A stretch of DNA of 51,022 nt from an uncultured Muribaculaceae bacterium (GTDB lineage: Bacteria; Bacillota_I; Bacilli_A; RF39; UBA660): contig CAYVSY010000001.1 of assembly GCA_964454255.1 (NCBI GenBank), positions 1 through 51,022 of the forward strand, read 5' to 3'. Both the position numbers and the translations under genes were made by a program. Positions 1 through 38,791 of this stretch are shown here, one piece after another. The first letter of the stretch is position 1. Each line of letters opens with the position of its first letter. The notes under the pieces were generated by a model that was not told where the DNA came from, made no database searches, and saw nothing but the letters and a program-made list of their open reading frames with translations.

Positions 1-21
1 AATTAAATTTTTATAATTATT

Positions 22-43
22 AGGTGCATTTTAGGTGCATTTT
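22..43 (+). repeat. perfect tandem direct repeat, 2 x 11 bp (AGGTGCATTTT), candidate operator
   Basis: Positions 22-32 and 33-43 are identical. The repeat lies where the -35 element of the downstream extended -10 promoter would be. Confidence 0.6.
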
Positions 44-53
44 TTAATATTCA

Positions 54-62
54 TGGTATAAT
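54..62 (+). promoter_or_regulatory. extended -10 promoter element (TGGTATAAT) for the 87..905 gene
   Basis: TGnTATAAT match about 25 nt upstream of ATG 87. An AGGAGG RBS lies at 72-77. Confidence 0.5.
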
Positions 63-86
63 TAATAACATAGGAGGCCAAAATTA

Positions 87-905
87 ATGATAGAAAAAGG
101 AACTCAATTAAAAGGATATATTCAAAGAGAAACAAAAGCCGTTCCAATGCATTCAAATTATGGATATACATACTATTTTTGTCGAACATTTTTACAAAGA
201 CTGTATAAAGAAAATCCGGATTATTTTATTTTAAGAGGGAGTTATGCTCAATATGCCAATTTAAAAACTATAAACAGACCATTAACAGATATAGACCTTG
301 TTACATTCAAACATATTGAAAGCGCTAAAAACACAATTGAACAGACAATTAAGATTAATGATCAAATTAAATTTGAAATAAAACAAAAATTTGTCACAAC
401 TAATTCAACTATAAATTATCGAATAGGGTGCACTTTTGATAACATACAACATTTAATATCATTAGATTTAAAAAGCGATAATTCTTTTGATTCCCAAATT
501 AATGAATTACCAAAATTATTCAGTCAAGATGAAATATTTAATGTTAATGCTGCTACATTAGAGGAAGGACTAGCTAGTAAAATTTATGTTGTTTTATTAA
601 ATTTATATTTACAGCAAAAATTAGGTAAAGAGTTTCGAAGGTTCAAAGATTTTTATGATATTCAATGTATCTTACAATCAAAGAAATTTGATGAAAATAA
701 AGTTAGAGAAATTTTGGCAAAAAAAATAACGACAGATAATTTTTTAAATAGTTATAATTTAACAGGTAATGTGTTTGATAAACAATTTGTCACACAAAAT
801 ATGGATCAATGGAATCAAGAAAAGAAAAAATACGAATTTAAAAATTCTATTGAATTTGATGATAGTGTTGATTCATTAAATAAATTTATATTTAGAAAAA
901 AATAA
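87..905 (+). CDS. AbiEii/AbiGii-like nucleotidyltransferase (toxin family) protein
   Basis: FILRGSYAQ...RPLTDIDLV resembles the fvLKGGtal...R.T.DIDl NTase motif. FRRFKDFYDIQCIL resembles the C-terminal R.KDlYDl motif. Strong RBS. Confidence 0.5.
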   Translation: MIEKGTQLKGYIQRETKAVPMHSNYGYTYYFCRTFLQRLYKENPDYFILRGSYAQYANLKTINRPLTDIDLVTFKHIESAKNTIEQTIKINDQIKFEIKQKFVTTNSTINYRIGCTFDNIQHLISLDLKSDNSFDSQINELPKLFSQDEIFNVNAATLEEGLASKIYVVLLNLYLQQKLGKEFRRFKDFYDIQCILQSKKFDENKVREILAKKITTDNFLNSYNLTGNVFDKQFVTQNMDQWNQEKKKYEFKNSIEFDDSVDSLNKFIFRKK

Positions 906-936
906 TTACAGTTATATTCAGGGGAGGAAAAGTATA

Positions 937-2331
937 ATGGAAATAAGCATATTAGGAAATACAAGAATTTATGAATTAGAAAAAAGAATAAAAATGGTTG
1001 CGGCTGCCGGTAAATTATCAAGATTCAAAGGCAATGTTTTTGATGTATATGATTCATGTAATAATTATGAAAAAAATTTAAAGTTTATTGAAAAAGTTAT
1101 AGGTATGGGGCATAAATCAATTGTTGAACATGATTATTTAGTAATTGCCTTGAAAAATGTAAGTCCAATTGTCGAACAAACTTTAATTGAAGAAAGATTT
1201 TCATCATTTACTATAAAATCAAGAAGAGAAGTTAACTTTGAAAATGCTGGATATTATACACCAAATTTTTATGATAATGCCGGTAAAATTTTTGAAAACA
1301 ATAAAACTTTACAAGAACAATATAAAAAGCATATGGAATATTTATTTGGAGTATATAAAGAATTAATTGATTTAGAAATACCTAAAGAAGATGCAAGATA
1401 TATATTACCATATTCATTTAATAGTAATATTATTATGGGAGTAGATGCTCACACCTTAAACAGAATGATATTAAAATTAAAAACAAATTCTATTGAAGAA
1501 TTAAGAATAGTTGGTAATCAGTTAGCTAATATAGTAAGCAATGAAGTGCCATATCTTTCAAATGAGTTATATAAAGATTATAATACTATTGAAAGTATTG
1601 AATCACTTATACCAAAAAAAGTAAAACAAAACAAAGTAGATATTAAATCAATTAATAATGTTAAATTGTTATCAGCTACCGACAATATTGATGAAACAAT
1701 TATTGCATCATTGTTATGCGAATTGTATGGAATTGATTATAATAAAGCAAAAGAAATATATAATAACGAATTTAAAAATAATTCTGAACTTACTGATAGT
1801 ATTATTAAGAAATTATATACTACAATTGATAAAAATGCTTTAAAACAAGTTAATTTTAGATTTCAAATTCCAATTTCTTTAGCTGCTTTAACTCATATCA
1901 CTAGACATAGAACTCATGATATGATCATCCCTAGTTTTGTGCCTAACAATAATCTTTTAGATTATGTTGAACCACAAACAATTCATTGTCTTAATCCTAA
2001 ATTATGTAGAAATGTTTTTAAGCACAATTATAGCGTATATAAATCATTTAAAAATCAAGGGATAAGTGAAACTAATTTACCATATTTTCATTTAGCTGGT
2101 AATAAAATAAATATAATTACTTCTATGTCAGGTGAAACGTTAGCACATATATTACATTTAAGAACATGTAATAAAGCTCAGTGGGAAATTAAAAATATAG
2201 CTCAACAAATGCAAAATTTAGTTTCAAATAGATGTAACAGTTTTTCAAAAATATTAGGACCTGATTGCGAAGTATTAGGCATATGTCCTGAAAAAGGTGA
2301 AAGTTGCAAATTGAAAAAAATTAAAAAATAA
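937..2331 (+). CDS. thyX: FAD-dependent thymidylate synthase ThyX, tandem two-domain form
   Basis: First half has GHKSIVEH, EDARYILPYS and a degenerate EERFSSFTIKSRR. Second half has ITRHRTHDMIIPS and NKAQWEIKNIAQQM. Lies next to glyA. Confidence 0.75.
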   Translation: MEISILGNTRIYELEKRIKMVAAAGKLSRFKGNVFDVYDSCNNYEKNLKFIEKVIGMGHKSIVEHDYLVIALKNVSPIVEQTLIEERFSSFTIKSRREVNFENAGYYTPNFYDNAGKIFENNKTLQEQYKKHMEYLFGVYKELIDLEIPKEDARYILPYSFNSNIIMGVDAHTLNRMILKLKTNSIEELRIVGNQLANIVSNEVPYLSNELYKDYNTIESIESLIPKKVKQNKVDIKSINNVKLLSATDNIDETIIASLLCELYGIDYNKAKEIYNNEFKNNSELTDSIIKKLYTTIDKNALKQVNFRFQIPISLAALTHITRHRTHDMIIPSFVPNNNLLDYVEPQTIHCLNPKLCRNVFKHNYSVYKSFKNQGISETNLPYFHLAGNKINIITSMSGETLAHILHLRTCNKAQWEIKNIAQQMQNLVSNRCNSFSKILGPDCEVLGICPEKGESCKLKKIKK

Positions 2332-2343
2332 TGAGGTGGAAAT

Positions 2344-3552
2344 ATGGATGATAAAATTTTAAATGCTTTAAAAAAAGAAAAAAAACGTCAAGAAAAAACT
2401 ATCGAATTAATAGCTTCAGAAAATTTTGTTTCTAAAGATATATTAAAATTACAAGGTAGTATTTTTACAAATAAATATGCTGAAGGATATCCAAATAAAA
2501 GATATTATGGTGGCTGTGAAAACGTTGATACCATTGAAACATTAGCAATAGATTATGTCAAAAATTTATTTAAATGTCAATATGCCAATGTTCAACCGCA
2601 TTCTGGTTCAAGTGCCAATATGGCCGTATATAAAGCGTTATTAAATAATAATGATAAAATATTGAGTATGAGTTTAAATGATGGTGGACATTTAACACAT
2701 GGTCATAAAGTAAATTTTAGCGGTAAAGAATATAATATCATTTCATATAACGTTGATCCAATAACGGAAATAATTGATTATAATAAATTAGAAGAACTTG
2801 CTTTAAAAGAAAAACCAAAATTAATAATTGCCGGAGCTAGTGCATATTCTAGACTAATTGATTACAAAAGAATAAAAGAAATATCTACTAAAATAAATGC
2901 AATATTTATGGTAGATATGGCTCATATTGCCGGACTTGTAGCGGCTAATGTCATCCCCAGCCCTATTCAATATGCTGACATAATCACATCAACAACCCAT
3001 AAAACATTACGCGGTCCTCGAGGAGGGTTTATATTAACTAATTCTGAAGAGATAGCTAAAAAAATTGATAAGACTGTATTCCCCGGAATACAAGGTGGAC
3101 CATTAATGCATGTAATAGCGGCCAAAGCAGAATGCTTTTATGAAGCAATGCAACAAGATTTTATTGAATATCAAAAACAAGTTTTAAAAAATGCTAAAGC
3201 ATTATCAAAAGCATTACAAAATGGTGGAATCAGAATAGTTTCAGGTGATACAGAAAATCACTTAATCTTAATTGATGTAAAAAAATCATTAAATATAACT
3301 GGTAAAGATGCTGAAGAAATACTAAATGAAATTGGAATAACGGTAAATAAAAATACTATTCCTTTTGATACATTACCGCCAACCAAGACAAGTGGTATAA
3401 GACTTGGAACACCAGCTATGACAACGAAAGGATTAAAAGAAGAAAATTTTATTGAAATTGGGAATATTATTATCGATGCATTAAAAAAAAATAATGATGT
3501 TAAATCACTTCAAAAAAGAGTAAATTTAATAATTAAAAAATGTATATTATGA
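2344..3552 (+). CDS. glyA: serine hydroxymethyltransferase
   Basis: [23 protein letters not shown] and [14 protein letters not shown] (PLP lysine). 402 aa. Ends in TGA. Confidence 0.97.
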
Positions 3553-3580
3553 TATAATTAAGTATAGGTAGGTGATAAAA

Positions 3581-4402
3581 ATGAACATAATTGAAACAAT
3601 TATTTTAGGAATAATTCAAGGAATAGGAGAGTTTTTACCGATTTCTTCATCAGCGCATTTAATTATTATTCCATATTTATTTAATTTTGCTGATATAGGT
3701 TCAGCCAATTCAAAATTAGCTTTTGATGTAGCTTTACATGCTGGAACATTAATTTCTGTTTTAATAATTTATTATAAAGACTGGATCAATTTATTTAAAG
3801 GAGCATGTAATAAAATATTTAAGAAAAAAGATTCATTTGAAAATAAAATGTTTTGGTATTTAGTTTTAGCAACTATACCAGGAGCAATAATTGGATTTTT
3901 ATTAGAAGATATTATTGAAAGTGCTGTTCGTGGTAATTTATTAATAATTGCGATATGCTTAGCAATAATGGGTGTATTGTTATATTTAGGTGATAAATGG
4001 GCCAAAAAAAAATATACAAATAACCAAACAAATTTTGAAAATCTAACATTAAAACAAACATTCATAATAGGGTTATCTCAAGCTTTAGCCGTCATTCCAG
4101 GTTTTTCTAGATCCGGAACAACAATATTAACAGGAAGGTTATTAGGTGTTTCAAAAACAGCAATAACAAAATTTACCTTTTTATTATCTACACCAATAAT
4201 ATTTGGAGCAGCATTAGTCAATATAAAAGATTTAGTTATAACTAAAGAAGTAATAATTGGAATATTAACATCAGCAATTGTAGGAATAATAACAATTAAA
4301 TTTTTATTAAATTATATTAAAAAACATGATTTTTCAGTATTTGCTGTATATAGAGTTGTTCTTGCTATAATAATAATTATAAAATTAATAATAGTTAAAT
4401 AA
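3581..4402 (+). CDS. uppP: undecaprenyl-diphosphate phosphatase
   Basis: GIIQGIGEFLPISSSAHL and PGFSRSG motifs; multi-TM. ATG 3581 is preferred over GTG 3572 because the RBS TAGGTAGG lies 8 nt upstream. Confidence 0.92.
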   Translation: MNIIETIILGIIQGIGEFLPISSSAHLIIIPYLFNFADIGSANSKLAFDVALHAGTLISVLIIYYKDWINLFKGACNKIFKKKDSFENKMFWYLVLATIPGAIIGFLLEDIIESAVRGNLLIIAICLAIMGVLLYLGDKWAKKKYTNNQTNFENLTLKQTFIIGLSQALAVIPGFSRSGTTILTGRLLGVSKTAITKFTFLLSTPIIFGAALVNIKDLVITKEVIIGILTSAIVGIITIKFLLNYIKKHDFSVFAVYRVVLAIIIIIKLIIVK

Positions 4403-4416
4403 TAACCATTATTAAT

Positions 4417-4490
4417 GCCGTTTTAGTTCAGTGGTAGAATAAAAGCATGGTAAGCTTCAGACGACAGTTCAATTCTGTCAAATGGCACCA
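4417..4490 (+). tRNA. tRNA-Thr (anticodon GGU), CCA encoded
   Basis: Hand-folded cloverleaf. Acceptor GCCGTTT/AAATGGC (one G-U); D arm GTTC/GAAT; anticodon stem AAAGC/GCTTC with loop ATGGTAA; T arm GACAG-TTCAATT-CTGTC; then ACCA. 74 nt. Confidence 0.88.
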
Positions 4491-4501
4491 TTTTGTAAGC
4501 A

Positions 4502-4530
4502 GACTTGTTCTTTTTTATACAAGTTTTTAT
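4502..4530 (+). terminator. possible rho-independent terminator after the tRNA
   Basis: ACTTGT (4503-4508) pairs with ACAAGT (4519-4524), followed by TTTTT. Confidence 0.35.
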
Positions 4531-4580
4531 TTGTATGATATAATTGAATCAATAGATAGTAATTTGAAGAAGTGTTGTGT

Positions 4581-5145
4581 ATGAATCTAAGTAAAGATGA
4601 ATTAGAGCATTTGTGGGAGATTTTTCCAATCATATTTGTTGATAATAATCCAAAATTTGTTGAACAATATTGTGAAGAAGAATTGAAATTAAAGAAGCTA
4701 TTAGGTAATTACATTATAAGAATAAGTCATATTGGAAGTACATCAATAAAAAAAAATTAAGACAAAACCTATAGTAGATATATTGATTGAGATTGGAAAC
4801 ATTCATGAAATTATCAATATAGAAAATATATTAATAAATAATGGATATACACTTATGAATAAAGATTTAAATAAAATTAAAATAAGTTTTAATAAGGGTT
4901 ATACAATGAATGGTTATGCTGATAAAGTTTTTAATATTCATATAAAAAAATATTATGATTGTGATGAACTTTATTTTAGAGATTATTTGAATTGTCATGA
5001 AGAGAAGGCAAAAGAATATGAAAAATTAAAATTAGATTTATATCAAAAATATAAACCAAATAGAGATTTGTATACCGAAGGAAAAAGTGATTTTGTTCAT
5101 TGCATAGTAAAACTAGCAAAAACTGAATATGCAAATAGATATTAA
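4581..5145 (+). pseudogene. GrpB-family protein gene, split by a frameshift in an A9 run
   Basis: ORF 1 ends ...ISHIGSTSIKKN*. The next frame continues KTKPIVDILIEIG...FRDYLNCHEEKAKEYEKLK...YTEGKSDF. This matches the GrpB pattern HIGSTS..AKPIIDI...FRDYLR. The frame change occurs at A9, 4748-4756. Confidence 0.8.
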
Positions 5146-15435: not shown

Positions 15436-16428
15436 TTAATTTTCCCCTTCTTCTAACATGTTTGTTATAAAAATACCATAGCCTTTAATTGGATTATCTA
15501 CAACTACATGGGTTACGGCCCCTATAATGTAATCATTTTGAATTATTGGACTTCCGCTCATTCCTTGAACAATTCCACCTGTAACACTTAATAATGATTC
15601 GTCAATTATTTCAAATAATATATTTTTATTTCTTTTGTTTTTTTCACTTAAATTAATTATTTTAATATTGAATTCTTCGACTTTTTCATCTTTTAAAACT
15701 GTCATAATTTTAGCTTCCCCTAAATTTATATTTTCATATTTTCCAACTTTATATAATTTTTTATTAGGTATTTCTTTTGTATACTCTCCAAAAACACCAC
15801 TACTAGTATTTTCCTTTATATTTCCATAAGTGTCATTAGAATTATATCTGGCATTTTTTTCTCCTGGGGAACCATTATTACTTTTTTTAATATTAGTAAC
15901 AGTTGAATTATATATTTTTCCATTTTTAATTTCAAATTTTTCACCAGTTGTTTTTTCTAAAATTTCATGACCTAATGCACCATATAATTTAGTATTAGGA
16001 TCAATAAATGTTAGTGTTCCAATTCCGGTAATACTATCTTTAACATATAATCCTGATTTTATTACTTCTTCATCACTTTTTTCTAAAGGTAATTTTGTTT
16101 TTAAAATATTATTTTCTCTTTGATATTCAATATCAATGTATTTATTTTGGTCATTATTTTTAATTGTTTTAACCATTTCTTCAATACTTGATATTTTTAT
16201 ATCATTAATTTTTAATATTCTGTCACCAATTTGTAAATTTGCTTCTTTAGCTGGATATTTGCCATTTACTTCATAAAATCCAACTATTATTACATTTTTG
16301 GAATTGATTTGTAGTCCAATGTTTTCACCACCAGCTATTATGTATTCGGAATACGCAAATACATTTAATGGTATTATTAGTAGAAGAAAAAGGAATATAA
16401 ATTTGTTTTTTATCTTTTTAAAAAACAT
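15436..16428 (-). CDS. spoIVB: SpoIVB peptidase (S55) with PDZ domain
   Basis: PDZ segment GDRILKINDIKI; catalytic region GGIVQGMSGSPIIQNDYIIGAVTHV; signal anchor. ATG 16428 follows AAGGAG. Confidence 0.85.
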   Translation of the reverse strand: MFFKKIKNKFIFLFLLLIIPLNVFAYSEYIIAGGENIGLQINSKNVIIVGFYEVNGKYPAKEANLQIGDRILKINDIKISSIEEMVKTIKNNDQNKYIDIEYQRENNILKTKLPLEKSDEEVIKSGLYVKDSITGIGTLTFIDPNTKLYGALGHEILEKTTGEKFEIKNGKIYNSTVTNIKKSNNGSPGEKNARYNSNDTYGNIKENTSSGVFGEYTKEIPNKKLYKVGKYENINLGEAKIMTVLKDEKVEEFNIKIINLSEKNKRNKNILFEIIDESLLSVTGGIVQGMSGSPIIQNDYIIGAVTHVVVDNPIKGYGIFITNMLEEGEN

Positions 16429-16532
16429 ATATTTCATCTCCTTTTTAAATTTCACAAGCTACATAATTAGTATTAATTAAAATATAAAAGGTATACTAGT
16501 GAATATAAACCAATTTTTTAAAATATTATATA

Positions 16533-18395: not shown

Positions 18396-19007
18396 ATGAA
18401 AAATAAAATTAATGAACTATTAAAGAAAGTTTTACCCAATAAAAATTTAAATATTTTTATTATTTTAATTGTTATAATTGGCGTCCTATTTGGAACTATT
18501 TTCTTTTTAAATACTACTCCTGATGATAAAAAAAATATTTCTGATTCAATTATTTTGTGGAAACAAGGGATAAATAATACTAATTTTGGACAAGTATTTA
18601 TTAATGCTTTATTTAGTAATTTTTTATATTTGTTTTTAATATATATTTTTGGAATATCATTAATTGGGATTGTTGTTAATATTTTTTTAATCTTTTTTAA
18701 AGGGTTTATTATTGGATTCAACATAGCTACTTTTATTTCTTTATTCAGTTTTAAAGGCATTTTGTATTCTTTTGAATATGTTGTTTTTTCTCAGATTTTA
18801 TTAATTATTGCTATTTCAATTTTAGGAATTTATAGTATTATATTTTCATATGAAGTTCTTAAATCTTTAACTAAAAAAAAGGTATTTGATTTTAAAATAT
18901 TTTTAAAAAAATATAATATAATATTTTTAATATCTTTTGGGTTTATTTTTTTATCATCTTTATTTGAAGCTTTTTTATTTCCAATTTTATTAAAACTAAC
19001 TAGTTAA
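18396..19007 (+). CDS. spoIIM: stage II sporulation protein M-like (DUF95) membrane protein
   Basis: 203 aa with 5 TM segments. FINALFSNFLYLFLIYIFGISLIGIVVNIFLIFFKGFIIGF is typical of SpoIIM. Confidence 0.65.
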   Translation: MKNKINELLKKVLPNKNLNIFIILIVIIGVLFGTIFFLNTTPDDKKNISDSIILWKQGINNTNFGQVFINALFSNFLYLFLIYIFGISLIGIVVNIFLIFFKGFIIGFNIATFISLFSFKGILYSFEYVVFSQILLIIAISILGIYSIIFSYEVLKSLTKKKVFDFKIFLKKYNIIFLISFGFIFLSSLFEAFLFPILLKLTS

Positions 19008-20244: not shown

Positions 20245-20264
20245 ATTAACAGGAGGTCATGATA

Positions 20265-21044
20265 ATGAAACAAATGGAAAAATTTAACGAAATATTAAAA
20301 AAAACAAATATATCTAAAGTAAATTTGGCTAAATATTTAAATGTTTCTAGACAAATGTTATATAATTATTTAGATTGCGATGATTTAAATAAATTACCAA
20401 AAGAAAAAAAGAATTTAATATTATCTTTACTTGAAGTCGAAACAATTGAACAAATAGATGATATTGTTATAGATGACAAATACATTGAAACAATTGAAAA
20501 TAAATTTTCATATGGAAAAAAGAGTGGAGTTAGAACTGATATTATAATTGAATTAACTAGTTTTAAAAAGGAAGAACAAGATGTTTTAAACGATATTTTC
20601 TTCATTTTAAAAGAAATTTTAAATGAAGACAAAACTAAAAATTCTTATATTAGTTTAAGGTATGTTTATCATTTTTTACAAGCTATGTCTAATACTAAAG
20701 AAATTAAATATATATTGGGATATGTTGCTAAAGCTGCTGGTTTTGTAAAACCAACATCATATGATTTTGATCAAGATCATCAGTTTACTTTTGAAAGCAT
20801 AATGTATTCTGCGATGACTTTATATGCTAATGGTGGTGCATCAAGAACCAAATTAGCTGAGTCTCATAAACGTTGGGAAGCAGAATTAGACCAAAAAAAT
20901 GAAGAAATATTAAGTCGAACTCAGGAATTGAATACTGCCAAAGTTATTGCACTTAAAGAACTTGGATATACTGAAATAAATGAGAAAAATGCTGGAGAAG
21001 TATTTGATAAAATAGCTGAAATTCAAGCAAGAAAAATAGCATAA
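20265..21044 (+). CDS. helix-turn-helix (XRE-like) domain protein, function unknown
   Basis: ISKVNLAKYLNVSRQMLYNYL is an HTH. The remaining 200 aa are unrecognised. ATG 20265 has better RBS spacing than 20259. Confidence 0.5.
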   Translation: MKQMEKFNEILKKTNISKVNLAKYLNVSRQMLYNYLDCDDLNKLPKEKKNLILSLLEVETIEQIDDIVIDDKYIETIENKFSYGKKSGVRTDIIIELTSFKKEEQDVLNDIFFILKEILNEDKTKNSYISLRYVYHFLQAMSNTKEIKYILGYVAKAAGFVKPTSYDFDQDHQFTFESIMYSAMTLYANGGASRTKLAESHKRWEAELDQKNEEILSRTQELNTAKVIALKELGYTEINEKNAGEVFDKIAEIQARKIA

Positions 21045-21083: not shown

Positions 21084-21947
21084 TGTGCACAATTTGTAGT
21101 AAATGAAAAATGTGTTTCTAAGGCTAATTATTATGCTGAAAAATTTAATTTGTTAAATGATTTTATTAATGTTTCTATAAATAATCTTGAAAATACTATT
21201 AATCAAGATTATTACAATTATGATAAAAACAAAAAAAATTACAAATTTTCTAAAATAGCATTAGAAAAAATATTTTATTATTGTATTAAGCCTGGAAAAT
21301 TAGAATTAAACAAAATGTTAAAACAAATTTTTGGATTTGATATAAAAAAATTAGAAGGATATAGAATTAACAAAAGCGGTAAACCAGAGTTTTCAACAAT
21401 GTCAATATATAGGAGTGTTGTAAATATTGCTAATTCATATAATTATAAATTTGAATGGATAGAAAATGTCAATATATACAATAAAGTTATATACTACATG
21501 ACAATTGTTCCAAGTTACTTAGATTTGATTAATATTATTGAAAATGACATAGATATTTAATACACATTTAATGATATGCTATTAACACAATTAAATTTTA
21601 TGCAAGTAAAGAAAAAATTTGACTATGAAAAAGACACAAGAGAATATTTTATAAAAAAATATGCAATTAAAAATGATGGTTTACCACAAATTAGTTTAGA
21701 ATTTGTTGATGATATTATTAGTTCTCCTCAAGTAAAAAAAACATTAAGACAATCAATAAAAATAATTAATAATATTATAAAAGAAAAAAAACAATTACCT
21801 TCTATTATATCAATTGAATCTACTAAAGAAATGAATAGTAAAAATATGAAAACAATAATAGAATCCACTCAAAAAAAGAAGGAATTTTTAAAAACTACTG
21901 CAAAAAATACCATAGAAAAATTATTTGGTATAGATTATATTGAATAA
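21084..21947 (+). pseudogene. cas9: Cas9 remnant (REC lobe to RuvC-II only), with an in-frame stop and truncated at both ends
   Basis: A single frame, 21084-21947, is interrupted by TAA at 21558. KANYYAEKFNLLNDFINVSI, LEGYRINKSGKPEFSTMSIY and FVDDIISSPQVKKTLRQSIKIINNIIKEKKQLPSIISIESTKEMNSKN are collinear with recalled SaCas9 KYAYNADLYNALNDLNNLVI, IKGYRVTSTGKPEFTNLKVY and LVDDFILSPVVKRSFIQSIKVINAIIKKYGLPNDIIIELAREKNSKD. Confidence 0.75.
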
Positions 21948-22036
21948 ATCAAGATATAAAAAAAGATATTACTATGAATATAATAATATCAATAATTTTA
22001 TATATAATTTATAATCATTTTATAACAAAATTAATT

Positions 22037-22064
22037 GGTTCCTATAATTAATATTATGTTAACT
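22037..22064. other. dif: dif-type Xer recombination site (11-6-11)
   Basis: GGTTCCTATAA-TTAATA-TTATGTTAACT compared with recalled Firmicute dif ACTTCCTA(T/G)AA-TATATA-TTATGTAAACT and the E. coli right arm TTATGTTAAAT. It sits at the convergent switch in gene orientation. Confidence 0.75.
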
Positions 22065-23456
22065 TGTGTTATTTTCATTTAATTTTTGATTGTTAATTTT
22101 AAGTTCCACATCTAATAAATTGTTAAATTCATCACTTATTTCTTTTAATCTTTCGGTAGTTTTTGCTTCATATCTGATAGTAATATTTGGTCCAGTATTT
22201 GATGCTCTAATTAATGCAAAACCATCATCAAAAATAACTTTTATGCCATCTATTGTTAAAATATTATATTTTTTATTAATGGTGTAGTTTTTTATATTTT
22301 CAATTATTTTTTCTTTTATTTCATCTCTTACTTTTATTTTTATTTCTGGAGTATTGTAATAAGTATTAATTCCATCTAATAGTTCTGATATTTTTTTATT
22401 TGTATTGGATAATATTTCTATTATTCTAAGTCCAGCATAAATTCCATCATCATAACCAGGGAATTTATCTTGAAAATATATGTGACCTGATAATTCTCCA
22501 CCAAATGGTAAATTTTCACTAACCATTTTAGCTTTTGTATATGAATTGCCTGTTCTATATTGAATTGGTTCTATATTTAATTTTTTCATTTCATCTTCTA
22601 AACATTTAGAACATTTTACGTCAAATAATCCTCTTTTGTCAGAAATTTTGTTATATATATATCTCCATACTATGATCATTAATTTGTCAATCGGTATCAT
22701 ATTCCCTTTTTCATCTATTACCCCTATTCTATCTCCATCACCGTCAAAACCGATACCTAAATCAGCTTTGTTTTTGATAACTTCTTTTTTAAGGAATGTC
22801 ATATTTTCTTCTTCACATGGATCTGGATGGTGATTTGGAAAATTACCATTTGATATATCAAATAAAGGTATACATTCAATATTTAATTTTGAAAATACCT
22901 GATTAGCTATTATACTTGTTGTTCCATTACCACAATCATAAATTACTTTTAATGGTTTCTTTGTTAGTTTTATTTCTTTTAATAATAAATTAACATATTC
23001 TGAACTAACGTCAACTTCTTTTATACTACCCTTCCCCACACTTGTCCATTTATTGTCAAGTATAATGTCATATATTTCGTATACATCTTTACCATATGCA
23101 TTATGGTTTTTATTATAACAGAATTTAAATCCGTTGTATTCTTTTGGATTATGAGAGGCAGTAATCATTACTCCACAATCAATGTTTAATAAATCTCTGC
23201 CATAATAATACATTGGTGTTGTGACTAAACCTAAACTAGTTATATTGATTCCTGTTTCTAATAATCCTTTTATTATATTATCATATAATGATTTAGATGA
23301 AAGTCTATTATCATAACCAATTAAAGCTTCATTCTTTTCTTGTTCTATTATTTTTTTTCCAAATGCTTTTCCAAATAAATAAGCTGTTTCTTCATTTAAT
23401 TCTGTTGGATATATCCCTCTAATATCATATTCTCTAAATATATTTTTTTTAATCAT
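22059..23456 (-). CDS. phosphomannomutase/phosphoglucomutase (alpha-D-phosphohexomutase)
   Basis: ITASHNPKEYNGFKF (phosphoserine loop), GFDGDGDR (metal loop) and GELSGH. Confidence 0.9.
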   Translation of the reverse strand: MIKKNIFREYDIRGIYPTELNEETAYLFGKAFGKKIIEQEKNEALIGYDNRLSSKSLYDNIIKGLLETGINITSLGLVTTPMYYYGRDLLNIDCGVMITASHNPKEYNGFKFCYNKNHNAYGKDVYEIYDIILDNKWTSVGKGSIKEVDVSSEYVNLLLKEIKLTKKPLKVIYDCGNGTTSIIANQVFSKLNIECIPLFDISNGNFPNHHPDPCEEENMTFLKKEVIKNKADLGIGFDGDGDRIGVIDEKGNMIPIDKLMIIVWRYIYNKISDKRGLFDVKCSKCLEDEMKKLNIEPIQYRTGNSYTKAKMVSENLPFGGELSGHIYFQDKFPGYDDGIYAGLRIIEILSNTNKKISELLDGINTYYNTPEIKIKVRDEIKEKIIENIKNYTINKKYNILTIDGIKVIFDDGFALIRASNTGPNITIRYEAKTTERLKEISDEFNNLLDVELKINNQKLNENNTS

Positions 23457-24479: not shown

Positions 24480-25688
24480 ATGGAAGATTTATTAGCTATT
24501 AAACTTAGACCTAAGAAAATGTCTGATGTAATTGGTCAAGAACATTTATTAGGAACGGGTAAAGTTTTAAATAATTTGATTAAAAATAAAAAACTTTTTT
24601 CTATGATTTTATATGGTCCGCCCGGTATTGGTAAAACTACAATTGCGACTGTTTTAGTTCAAGAATTAAATTTAAAATATCGTCAATTAAATGCGGTTAT
24701 TAATAATAAAAAAGATTTTGATGTTGTTGTTGAAGAAGCTAAAATGAATAATGGTATGATTCTTATAATGGATGAAATACATCGCTTAAATAAAGATAAA
24801 CAAGATTTATTATTACCATTTTTAGAAAGCGGTTTGATTACTTTGATTGGTCTTACAACTTCTAATCCATATCATAGTATTAATCCAGCGATTAGAAGTC
24901 GTTGTCAAATATATGAATTAAAATGTTTAAGTTCAGAAAATATAAAGTTGGCTTTAGAAAAGGCTGTTAATTCTAGTGTATTATCGGGTTTATCAATCGA
25001 TGATGATGCTATTAAATATATTGTTCAGATGGCAAATTCGGACTTAAGATATGCATATAATTTATTAGAAGTTGCATATTATTCATGCAATGATAAAAAA
25101 ATTTCTTTTAATTTTATTAAAGAAATTGCAAATAATCCTAATACTTTTTATGATAAAAATGGTGATGGCTATTATGATACAATTAGTGCTTTTCAAAAAT
25201 CAATTCGCGGAAGTGATGTTAATGCTTCTCTACACTATCTTGCAAAGTTGCTTGAATTTGGTGATTTAGATATCATTTTAAGACGATTACAAGTAATTGC
25301 ATATGAAGATATTGGTTTAGCCAATTCATCGATAGGCCCTAAATTAATGGCTGTAATTAACGCCTCAGAAAGAGTCGGAATTCCTGAATGTCAAATTCCC
25401 TTAGCTAATATTGTTATTGAAATGGCTTTATCACCTAAATCTAATAGTGCATGTTTAGCTATCGCTGTAGCACTTGATGATATAAGAAAAAATAATTGTG
25501 ATTCTGTTCCTTCCCATTTAAAGACTACTTCTCCGCTTTATAAATATCCTCATAAATTTCCTAATCATTATGTTCATCAACAATATTTGCCTAATAATTT
25601 AATTAATAGAAAATATTATCTACCACAAGATAATAAAAATGAGTTTGTTTTTAAAAGCATATTAGAAAAATTAGAAAAATTGAAATAA
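24480..25688 (+). CDS. rarA: replication-associated recombination protein A (AAA+)
   Basis: LRPKKMSDVIGQEHLLG, LYGPPGIGKTT, MDEIHRLNK and the C-terminal MgsA domain YDTISAFQKSIRGSD. Confidence 0.93.
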   Translation: MEDLLAIKLRPKKMSDVIGQEHLLGTGKVLNNLIKNKKLFSMILYGPPGIGKTTIATVLVQELNLKYRQLNAVINNKKDFDVVVEEAKMNNGMILIMDEIHRLNKDKQDLLLPFLESGLITLIGLTTSNPYHSINPAIRSRCQIYELKCLSSENIKLALEKAVNSSVLSGLSIDDDAIKYIVQMANSDLRYAYNLLEVAYYSCNDKKISFNFIKEIANNPNTFYDKNGDGYYDTISAFQKSIRGSDVNASLHYLAKLLEFGDLDIILRRLQVIAYEDIGLANSSIGPKLMAVINASERVGIPECQIPLANIVIEMALSPKSNSACLAIAVALDDIRKNNCDSVPSHLKTTSPLYKYPHKFPNHYVHQQYLPNNLINRKYYLPQDNKNEFVFKSILEKLEKLK

Positions 25689-31100: not shown

Positions 31101-32153
31101 TTATTTATTATTTTTAATGTTATAAATTTTTTTATCTATGTCATTTTTAAAATACTTATATGTTGTAATAACAATAATAGCAACTGGTAAAGCAATTAAT
31201 ATTCCCCAAAAGCCCAATAATATGCCACCTGCAAAGACAGCAAATATGTTAATAATTGGATGAATATTGTTAGTTTTACCATATATTTTTGGAGCTATTA
31301 TATAGGTGTCTAATTGTGGACATATTAAACAAACTATTAGTGTTAAAATAGTTAATTCTCTACTAATAACTGACGAAATAATTAAAGCTAATATATTTAC
31401 AATAAACCCTCCAAAGTAAGGAATAATATTAGATACTGATGCTAGAATACCTAATATTAGAAAATTAGGATGTCCAATTATACAAAAAATAGTTGTATAT
31501 TCTATAAATTGAATTAGCATATTTTTAAAAAAACCTATAAAATAATTACTAACTTCATAATCCAATTTTTTTATATAATTATATAATTTTTTCTTTTTAA
31601 TATGTTTTTTTATATTTGATCTAATTTCTTCCATATCGATTAATAAATATATTGATACAAATATTATTACTACTAATGTAGCAATAACACTAAATGAGGC
31701 AGTTATTATAGTGATTGCACCAGATGATATATATTTTCCTAAATTTCTTATTATATCAGATGATATATTTGCTATTGTTTCTTGAATAACCTTGAGATTT
31801 ACTTCATATTTTAATCCGATATCTGAAATAAAAGTTGAGATACTTGATAAGAATAACAACCCTTGTTCATATATTAATGGTCCTACTACGATAAGTAATA
31901 CAATAATTAATCCAATTGAACATAATATAACAATTAATGTTGATAACCATGATGGCATTCCTTTATCTTCTAATTTTTTTTTATATGGATATAAAGCGTA
32001 TGCTATCGCGAAAGCTACTATAAATGGCCAAATAATGGTAAGTATCTTTTTAACTATTTCTACCCATACATCTTTTATTAAAAATAACAAACATACAATC
32101 GATATTATTAATAAAATATTTAGTAATTTATAATTTACTTTATCTTTTTTCAA
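31101..32153 (-). CDS. AI-2E family transporter (UPF0118/YtvI-like permease)
   Basis: 350 aa, about 8 TM segments. Typical family architecture, including the ...IPYFGGFI... segment. Confidence 0.8.
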   Translation of the reverse strand: MKKDKVNYKLLNILLIISIVCLLFLIKDVWVEIVKKILTIIWPFIVAFAIAYALYPYKKKLEDKGMPSWLSTLIVILCSIGLIIVLLIVVGPLIYEQGLLFLSSISTFISDIGLKYEVNLKVIQETIANISSDIIRNLGKYISSGAITIITASFSVIATLVVIIFVSIYLLIDMEEIRSNIKKHIKKKKLYNYIKKLDYEVSNYFIGFFKNMLIQFIEYTTIFCIIGHPNFLILGILASVSNIIPYFGGFIVNILALIISSVISRELTILTLIVCLICPQLDTYIIAPKIYGKTNNIHPIINIFAVFAGGILLGFWGILIALPVAIIVITTYKYFKNDIDKKIYNIKNNK

Positions 32154-37474: not shown

Positions 37475-38791
37475 ATGATTAAGAATAAATTTATTAAAGC
37501 AACTTTTATATTAATTATAGGTGGATTTATTTCCAAATTACTAGCAATGTTTATTAGAATAACTTTGTCACGAAAAATTGGCCCATCAGGAATTGGATTA
37601 TATATGCTTATTTTACCAACATTTCAGTTGTTTATTATATTAGGTAATTTAGGTTTTCCTGTTTCTATTTCTAAATTAGTTAGCGAACAAAGAAAAAATA
37701 ACAAGAAATTAGTTTTATCTATTATTCCTTTTATTATAATATATAATTTATTATTAATGCTTATATTACTTTTTATTTCACCATTAATTTCTAATTTATT
37801 ATTAAAAAATTTGGATACACTTTATCCTTTAATGGCCATTGGATTAACTTTGCCATGTATTACTATTTCAGATGTAATGAGAGGTTATTTTTTTGGAAAA
37901 CAAAAATCTTTTCCTTATGTTTTTTCTAATATTATTGAACAATTAGTTAGATTATTTTTAACAATATTTTTTATTCCTAATTTACTTAAATTTTCAATTC
38001 CTATAGCAGTTACTGGGGTTGTTTTAATAAATATTGTAAGTGAATTTTCTTCAATATTAATGTTATTAGTCTTTATTCCTAAAGATGTTACTATAAAGGT
38101 TCAGGATTTTAAAAAAGATATTCCTTATTTAAAAGATAATTTAGCAATTGGTATTCCTACTACTTCATCTAAATTAGTAAGTTCAATTGGAAATTTTTTT
38201 GAACCTATTATAATAACCTCAATATGTCTTTTTTTAGGATATAATAACAATTATATTACATATGAATATGGAATTATAAATGGTTATGTTTTACCTTTAC
38301 TTTTATTACCATCATTTTTTTCGTCAGCTATTTCTAATGCGTTGTTACCGGTAATAAGTAATAATTTTTCTAATAATAAAATTTCTGAAGTAAAACGCAA
38401 AATTAAGCAAGCAATTATTTTAGCTTTATCTGTTGGAGGACCAGCTACTTTATTTTTAACTTTTTTCCCTGATATTCTATTAAATTTATTATATGGCACA
38501 ACAATTGGTAGTTCATATATTAAAATGATTGCACCGTTTTTTATTTTTCATTATATTCAAGCACCTTTAACTTCTACCCTTCAAGGAATGGGCAAAGCTA
38601 AATGTGCTATGAAAGGTTCTATTGGTGGAACGATTCTTAGAATTATTACTTTATTATTATGCTTACTTTTAGGATTTAAGTTTTGGAGTGTTTTAATATC
38701 ATTGATTATTAGCATTGTATATGTAACTGGGCATAATATTTATTATGTTCAATTATATTTAAAAGAAAAAACAAAGATTTTCTTTGTTTAA
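37475..38791 (+). CDS. spoVB: SpoVB/MurJ-type MOP-superfamily flippase
   Basis: 438 aa, about 12 TM segments. N terminus KATFILIIGGFISKLLAMFIRITLSRKIGPSGIGLY. Synteny with comN-secDF. Confidence 0.7.
   Translation: MIKNKFIKATFILIIGGFISKLLAMFIRITLSRKIGPSGIGLYMLILPTFQLFIILGNLGFPVSISKLVSEQRKNNKKLVLSIIPFIIIYNLLLMLILLFISPLISNLLLKNLDTLYPLMAIGLTLPCITISDVMRGYFFGKQKSFPYVFSNIIEQLVRLFLTIFFIPNLLKFSIPIAVTGVVLINIVSEFSSILMLLVFIPKDVTIKVQDFKKDIPYLKDNLAIGIPTTSSKLVSSIGNFFEPIIITSICLFLGYNNNYITYEYGIINGYVLPLLLLPSFFSSAISNALLPVISNNFSNNKISEVKRKIKQAIILALSVGGPATLFLTFFPDILLNLLYGTTIGSSYIKMIAPFFIFHYIQAPLTSTLQGMGKAKCAMKGSIGGTILRIITLLLCLLLGFKFWSVLISLIISIVYVTGHNIYYVQLYLKEKTKIFFV

Follow-up and report, generated by a model that had tools for sequence, protein, structure and literature searches.

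We examined a stretch of 51,022 nucleotides (hereafter the window; contig CAYVSY010000001.1, assembly GCA_964454255.1) from an uncultured bacterium of the RF39 lineage, in which an earlier note, made from the sequence alone, had placed a chromosomal dif site at the meeting point of two oppositely oriented gene arrays, close to the gene of a Xer-type recombinase. The window has a G+C content of 23.5% and carries ordinary chromosomal genes. To the left of the proposed site these include the genes of SMC, Tgt, XseA, SpoIVB, SpoIIM and MnmA, all on the plus strand with the sole exception of that for the SpoIVB peptidase (15436-16455, minus strand), and to the right those of TcdA, AspS, HisS, RelA, SecDF, PheST, SerS and Lon, all on the minus strand except for rarA and a SpoVB-like gene (37475-38791, plus strand). 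The switch from nearly all plus-strand to nearly all minus-strand genes described in the note is therefore real, with three exceptions in all.

At the switch lies a 28-bp sequence on the plus strand, GGTTCCTATAA-TTAATA-TTATGTTAACT (22037-22064), which on direct reading has the 11-6-11 form attributed to it (Table 1). The reverse complement of the right arm, AGTTAACATAA, equals the left arm at 7 of 11 positions, and the inner ATAA/TTAT of the arms is perfectly symmetric, giving imperfect inverted arms around a 6-bp centre. A hand recount against the Staphylococcus aureus-type dif returned the same values as reported before (9/11 for the left arm, 4/6 for the centre and 10/11 for the right arm), and so did a recount of the right arm against that of Escherichia coli (10/11). 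The coordinates of the open reading frames (ORFs) bear out the remaining claims about position: the site falls within a 111-nt gap between the convergent ORFs 21576-21947 (plus strand) and 22059-23456 (minus strand), and its right arm overlaps the end of the second of these, a phosphohexomutase gene. Bases 22059-22064 of the site (TTAACT, or AGT TAA on the minus strand) form the final Ser codon and the stop of that gene, the stop codon itself being 22059-22061.

Table 1 Features of the dif locus, in window coordinates
Feature	Position	Strand	Remark
Cumulative G-C maximum plateau (replichore junction within the window)	21663-22106		Peak at 21721
dif left (XerC-type) arm, GGTTCCTATAA	22037-22047	+	Sequence read directly
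dif central region, 6 bp, TTAATA	22048-22053	+	Sequence read directly
dif right (XerD-type) arm, TTATGTTAACT	22054-22064	+	Last 6 nt inside the phosphohexomutase gene
XerD-type tyrosine recombinase gene, 293 aa	23470-24351	-	Transcribed toward dif; 1406 nt from dif
Phosphohexomutase (PgmG/GlmM-like) gene, between xer and dif	22059-23456	-	Neighbour, no functional part
RarA-like AAA+ ATPase gene, divergent from xer	24480-25688	+	rarA-xer pair kept in nearly all related loci
Gene of conserved 261-aa protein with N-terminal XRE-type helix-turn-helix (HTH)	20259-21044	+	Conserved flank opposite xer

Base composition changes at the same place. The 22 kb to the left of dif have a GC skew of +0.204, and the 29 kb on the other side one of -0.171. 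The note had expected an extremum at about 22 kb, and within the 51-kb window the peak of the cumulative G-C curve, which coincides with the maximum-likelihood change point, was found at position 21721, on a plateau that encloses dif.

The sequence occurs once in the window, even when up to 3 mismatches are allowed, and no match was produced by any of 100 shuffles. It is also the best Hamming match in the window both to the dif of Bacillus subtilis (ACTTCCTAGAATATATATTATGTAAACT, as quoted in PMC3025954) and to that of E. coli, in each case at 22 of 28 positions (6 mismatches). An equal match was reached by 3 of 200 dinucleotide shuffles for B. subtilis dif and by none of 200 for E. coli dif, so that the similarity to known sites is by itself only modestly significant. 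On a 28-column position weight matrix, which was built from the sites of relatives together with the window's own site and is thus partly circular for the window, the sequence scores 36.0 bits, while the next best position in the 51 kb, 16.7 kb away, scores 10.0 bits.

A weak second dif-like sequence, ACTGGGCATAATATTTATTATGTTCAAT (38726-38753, plus strand; 10 bits against 36), matches E. coli dif at 22 of 28 positions by hand count. It too lies where genes converge: the 3' end of the SpoVB-like gene, which contains it, there meets pheT. Its score falls within the background range of the relatives, and the match is therefore probably due to chance.

Conservation of the site among relatives

It is the comparison with relatives that we regard as decisive for the genuineness of the site. 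A scan with the Xer protein of one genome per GTDB species yielded 80 loci, represented by pieces of ~20 kb (~1.2 Mb in total), from gut or rumen metagenome-assembled genomes (MAGs) labelled uncultured Bacilli, Tenericutes, Mollicutes and similar, and including UBA660 and Clostridium sp. CAG:914. Their Xer proteins are 43-55% identical to that of the window (65% over one truncated match). A strong site, defined as one with ≤4 mismatches to the lineage consensus over the 22 arm positions, is present in 41 loci, once in each, and scores 27-41 bits on the matrix; no other match in the ~1.2 Mb from the relatives exceeds 12.6 bits. Further to that, five loci (L007, L054, L057, L069 and L072) keep ATAAT-NNNNA-TTATGTTAAC with a diverged outer left arm. 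If a locus is counted as informative when it extends ≥3 kb downstream of xer or has a detected site (15 of the 34 siteless loci fall below this and are uninformative), one dif-like site is found in 46 of 65 informative loci. No rival to the site therefore appeared either within the window or within the ~20-kb related loci.

In all 46 loci dif lies downstream of xer, at a distance of 0.57-9.2 kb (median 1.84 kb). ORFs converge on it at each of the 42 strong sites analysed (those of the 41 relatives and the window). On the far side of dif the GC skew is negative at 41 of these 42, the exception being L075, a contig that ends 26 nt past the site, and on the near side, which holds the opposite-strand rarA, it is positive or about zero except in L080 (-0.23). 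Since convergence and skew switch recur in this way, dif marks the replichore junction across the lineage and beyond this window alone. That dif sits where the two replichores meet is thus supported, as judged from the 51-kb window and the ~20-kb pieces of the relatives.

The anatomy of the site family was read from 34 distinct sequences, 33 from relatives and the window's own. The right arm TTATGTTAACT hardly varies, G22 being present in 34/34 and C27 in 30/34. In the left arm, positions 8-11 (ATAA) are invariant while the outer positions 1-7 vary (ACTTCC, ATTTCA, GGTTCC, GTTTCG and others), and in the centre T12 and T16 are invariant, A17 is nearly so, and positions 13-14 are free. The commonest sequence among relatives, ACTTCCTATAATATATATTATGTTAACT, agrees with B. 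subtilis dif at 26 of 28 positions. The 10 nt that flank the site are unrelated among relatives. In about half of the 42 sites, however, the right arm is directly followed by TCT (TTATGTTAACTtct), and conservation may extend slightly past the 28-mer. An invariant XerD-side arm opposite a variable XerC-side arm is the usual pattern of classical XerCD dif sites, and we take the asymmetry seen here as pointing, if weakly, to two distinct binding proteins.

The surrounding gene order is kept as tcdA, rarA (on the opposite strand), xer, zero to three variable genes, dif, and then a convergent pair formed by the gene of an HTH protein and mnmA. What stands between xer and dif differs among relatives, phosphohexomutase being one of several such genes. 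In L049 the interval holds a 389-aa ORF that we take by eye to be phosphopentomutase (DeoB)-like, and in L045 a 250-aa membrane protein and a 208-aa protein, presumably a ZIP transporter and an amidotransferase. On the B. subtilis map, ripX (xerD) has drm (deoB), fur and spoIIM as neighbours, and yrvM (tcdA) and yrvN (rarA) precede the mnmA region; in the window a SpoIIM gene lies 4.5 kb from xer. By this gene order the Xer protein would correspond in position to XerD/RipX as its orthologue, and this lineage would happen to have its terminus inside an ancient gene neighbourhood.

Informative loci in which xer has no dif nearby fall as clades, one with the order xer-pgm-tcdA (L010, L012-L014, L016, L022, L029 and L034) and another comprising L024, L025, L027, L036, L039 and L047. 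Because of this the linkage of xer and dif looks ancestral, with a few losses by rearrangement. Where the linkage is kept, the orientation of the site is not fixed: dif is inverted relative to both conserved flanks in nine loci (L015, L049, L050, L052, L055, L058, L073, L078 and L081), at about 12.4-14.9 kb in each. By Xer similarity, six of them (L015, L049, L052, L055, L058 and L073) form one inverted clade, and the other three each have nearest Xer neighbours of the usual orientation, a distribution which implies at least 4 independent flips if Xer similarity is taken as the guide. One identical 28-mer even occurs in opposite orientations, in L076 and L078. In E. coli, dif is functional in both orientations when at its usual place, and the L076/L078 pair would fit such orientation-independence.

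The adjacent recombinase and the number of Xer proteins

The 293-aa XerC/D-type gene which the note had seen 1.4 kb from the site turned out to be of XerD type with a complete catalytic set, and the adjoining gene is RarA-like, as proposed. Among NCBIfam models the protein scores best on XerD (TIGR02225, 323.0 bits, compared to 279 bits for XerC), and it passes the tyrosine recombinase model NF001399 (302 bits, cutoff 279). Pfam places a SAM-like N-terminal domain (Phage_int_SAM_1) and a catalytic domain (Phage_integrase) on it. Its best PDB alignment, with E. coli XerD (1A0P, E = 1.7e-46), covers the full length, XerA and XerH being far weaker matches to the protein (XerH 5JJV, E = 3e-18). 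Residues R144, K171, H239, R242, H265 and Y274 are invariant in 81 sequences, those of the window and the 80 orthologues. Judged from these comparisons, the neighbouring gene is a full-length XerD-type tyrosine recombinase with intact catalytic residues.

Among the closest known systems is that of B. subtilis, in which dif is acted on by RipX (XerD) and CodV (XerC): there, too, a 28-bp site of 11-6-11 form lies at the terminus and the skew switch (identity 22/28 with the window site and 26/28 with the lineage's commonest sequence), and the recombinase found here is XerD-type, with about 295 aa and the full R-K-H-R-H-Y set. The difference is that in most members of this lineage the xerD-type gene is separated from dif by 0.6-9 kb, whereas in B. 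subtilis ripX is not known to lie beside dif. With the E. coli XerCD/dif/FtsK system it shares the right arm (10/11) and the full-length XerD alignment, while the left arm differs (GGTTCCTATAA here, GGTGCGCATAA in E. coli); rarA, which lies beside ftsK in E. coli, is also near here. XerS/difSL of streptococci and lactococci and XerH/difH of Helicobacter and Campylobacter resemble the present locus in that the recombinase gene is linked to the site lineage-wide. However, those recombinases are divergent proteins of about 355 aa, compared to an XerD-like 293 aa here, difSL measures 31 bp with an 11-bp centre as against a 28-mer with a 6-bp centre, and here one to three unrelated genes intervene between gene and site (median distance as given above). 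XerL/dif of the Legionellales (PMC9765430) has an AT-rich, partly palindromic site of about 30 bp, likewise at the cumulative GC-skew maximum, but XerL is divergent (catalytic Tyr at position 387) and homology searches had failed to detect the site, while both site and enzyme are readily recognisable as classical here.

Taken together, the form of the site, the switch in skew and strand, the 46 orthologous sites and the intact XerD-type gene all agree, and we are therefore confident that an uncultured gut bacterium of very low GC content has its chromosomal dif in this 28-bp sequence, at the replichore junction. We consider it a further member of the classical dif family, with a mildly unusual xerD-dif linkage. 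Kono et al. (PMC3025954) report that most xerD genes are located close to the origin, and most xerC genes close to dif, which is why a conserved xerD-dif pair is somewhat unusual. We found no earlier description of this lineage's dif in the searchable literature, and a search combining RF39 and Xer returned nothing relevant.

By analogy with E. coli and B. subtilis, the site would act when homologous recombination has joined sister chromosomes into a dimer, and Xer recombinases would then bind both arms of each dif. Most probably the XerD-type enzyme encoded 1.4 kb away takes the near-invariant arm TTATGTTAACT, and a XerC/CodV-type partner encoded elsewhere takes the variable one. The recombinases would synapse two dif sites at the septum and, probably after activation by a FtsK/SpoIIIE-type translocase, exchange strands across the 6-bp centre to give two monomers. 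For the assignment of proteins to arms, the partner recombinase, the dependence on a translocase and recombination itself, we rely on homology to the E. coli and B. subtilis systems only.

Several observations weigh against this reading of the locus. The linkage is not obligatory, since 19 of the informative relatives carry xer with no dif close by. The score of the protein on TIGR02225 (323.0 bits) falls just under the equivalog cutoff of 329.6. In E. coli XerD, E184 makes a critical salt bridge with FtsK-gamma (PMC5052618); the residues aligned with E183 and E184 are D179 and I180 here, so that the contact residue, replaced by Ile, is not kept, and most of the 81 orthologues have a hydrophobic residue at position 180. 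An activation contact with FtsK-gamma of the E. coli type is accordingly not demonstrated by the alignment, and we regard the E183/E184 contact as an E. coli feature that is not established as defining for the XerD of Firmicutes. Finally, no KOPS- or SRS-like polar motif separable from general purine skew was found in the window or its relatives. In the window GAAGAAG points toward rather than away from dif at a ratio of 21:4 (178:38 for all G3A4 heptamers pooled) and GAGTAGG at 4:0 (10556 and 12019 on the plus strand, 26304 and 41072 on the minus strand), and in the pooled relatives GAGTAGG stands at 104:4 and GAGTAGGG at 55:0. GAGTAGG resembles the SRS (GAGAAGGG) and KOPS (GGGNAGGG) motifs, the latter, in its E. 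coli form, being absent from the window in our motif search. These counts are confounded: other G-rich words are equally skewed, Gly-Val-Gly coding is possible, and the homologous genes shared among relatives make them non-independent.

A different question is whether the XerD-type enzyme might be the only Xer protein of the organism and serve the two arms of a dif that looks classical. A recombinase gene linked to its site has been described as a possible mark of single-recombinase systems, namely XerS/difSL and XerH/difH (PMC5357621), and the resemblance to these that the note had pointed out is fair inasmuch as the linkage is conserved across the lineage; it does not extend to the site and the protein, both of which are of the classical XerCD/dif type. 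Speaking for one recombinase are the retention of the linkage by the majority of informative relatives across 43-55% Xer identity and the lack of a second Xer-like gene among the screened ORFs of the window and, for the 80 loci, at distances of up to 10 kb from xer; a small genome, which we assume for this lineage, would also favour gene loss. The DNA surveyed amounts, however, to only ~1-2% of each genome, and the absence of xerC from it thus carries no weight. Against this explanation speaks the combination of an invariant XerD arm with a free XerC arm, for which two distinct binding proteins are the simplest account. The enzyme also stands far from XerS (108 bits on model NF003462, cutoff 267) and from XerH (E-value as above, against 2e-46 in round figures for XerD), and the 19 relatives just mentioned have lost the linkage and kept xer. 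We conclude that a one-recombinase system has no positive support here and is improbable. Much the same can be said of a broader proposal, to which we give little credence: that the lineage as a whole resolves dimers with a single XerD-type recombinase of ordinary size, kept as a module beside a classical 28-bp dif, which would be a fourth, independently evolved one-recombinase system after XerS, XerH and XerL, with the HTH protein on the other side of dif acting at the terminus, for example in an accessory or fork-arresting role.

The opposite flank and the possibility of mobile DNA

The HTH protein has a helical C-terminus that is very conserved (65-70% identity among relatives, a higher value than that of Xer). 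Its homologues in the database number 4601; neither Pfam nor NCBIfam gave a family for it, and PHROGs gave weak HTH matches only. In its AlphaFold model (mean predicted local distance difference test score 68.6, predicted template modelling score 0.33) the N-terminal 85 residues are confident, and a Foldseek search of the PDB returned nothing at E ≤ 0.001, only XRE-type HTH domains appearing. In 41 related loci the stop of the HTH gene lies at a median of 471 bp from dif (range 6-4637). It may be, however, that this closeness is plain synteny, because in L026 the HTH gene stays with mnmA although the pair is not beside dif.

In the window the distance is 992 bp, compared to <100 bp (6-97 bp) in eleven relatives. 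This ~1 kb holds two plus-strand ORFs, 21150-21560 and 21576-21947. The second is a relic of Cas9: it matches positions 446-552 of TIGR01865 (E = 7e-15), is 35% identical by pairwise BLASTP to residues 516-600 of an intact 1156-aa Cas9 encoded in L007, and has a degraded RuvC-II IEMAR motif. A tblastn search of the window with the intact L007 Cas9 gave nothing significant, the relic being seen only by profile and pairwise BLASTP, and ORF 21150-21560 has no detectable similarity to Cas9 or to anything else searched. There is no array of clustered regularly interspaced short palindromic repeats (CRISPR), cas1 or cas2 in the window. Compared to relatives with the HTH gene 6-40 bp from dif, ~1 kb has been inserted or retained beside the site, and the Cas9-relic stretch looks like decay in a plastic terminus region.

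The same stretch raises the possibility that the site is the attachment site or scar of a Xer-exploiting element (IMEX), or an integrase target, with the Cas9 fragments as remnants of cargo. Besides the ~1 kb of degraded DNA, this explanation could draw on the occurrence of classical dif-like sites in at least 120 IMG/VR viral contigs. However, no second dif-like repeat flanks the insert (none lies at 20.9-22.0 kb, and the next best match is the 10-bit sequence 16.7 kb off), integrase, phage and plasmid genes were not found nearby, and the site occupies the same chromosomal junction, between housekeeping flanks, in 46 relatives. The viral matches also differ in composition, as none of the high-scoring ones among the matches listed comes from DNA of comparable GC. 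Those listed (L108-L227) are mostly in contigs of 31-49% GC, and the best below 30% GC, the only such match above 30 bits, is L145, a 2.7-kb locus (28% GC, 30.5 bits). With neither a CRISPR array nor a second dif-like repeat found, an integrated IMEX at dif is unlikely, and as an account of the site itself we consider this explanation highly improbable.

As for the viral sites, one sequence, ATGTCCGATAATGTATATTATGTTAACT, recurs in at least 14 contigs of 41-46% GC, and among the matches listed several stand at contig ends. They may stem from elements that exploit Xer or from host DNA flanking called prophages; they seem to have no relation to the lineage of the window, and no link to an IMEX is established.

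That the match is instead a functionless chance occurrence in AT-rich intergenic DNA could be argued from a genome that is 76% A+T, a motif made mostly of A and T and the few shuffles that match B. subtilis dif equally well, but this is already effectively refuted by the sites of the relatives, by the matrix scan and by the exact coincidence with the skew and strand switch in window and relatives alike, the orthologous position being kept in 46 genomes amid otherwise unalignable intergenic DNA, with G22 invariant and C5 and C27 nearly so in spite of a 23% GC genome.

Two further features of the window are recorded here. In addition to the SpoIVB peptidase gene it carries a SpoIIM gene (18396-19007, plus strand), and the SpoVB-like gene as well as a YtvI-like gene (31101-32153, minus strand) score below the curated cutoffs; the presence of sporulation-type genes suggests retained sporulation capacity or its remnants. 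A 464-aa protein (937-2331, plus strand) is matched by the model of ThyX, the flavin adenine dinucleotide-dependent thymidylate synthase, over residues 21-209 only, and its C-terminal half has no match at an E-value threshold of 1e-10 in NCBIfam, the one collection used for this check.

Significance for the lineage

Unless xerC proves absent, nothing mechanistically new is implied by this locus. The classical dif consensus is extended to the lineage, and the site fixes the replication terminus of a genome from a poorly known, uncultured group of gut bacteria, which can serve the finishing of MAGs and replichore-aware analyses; a known terminus also helps growth-rate (peak-to-trough) estimates. 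Further to that, the lineage offers two small but usable natural experiments: the conserved proximity of xerD to dif can inform the question whether one-recombinase systems are predicted by linkage of gene and site, and the recurrent flips of dif between flanks that stay in place can inform that of its orientation-independence.

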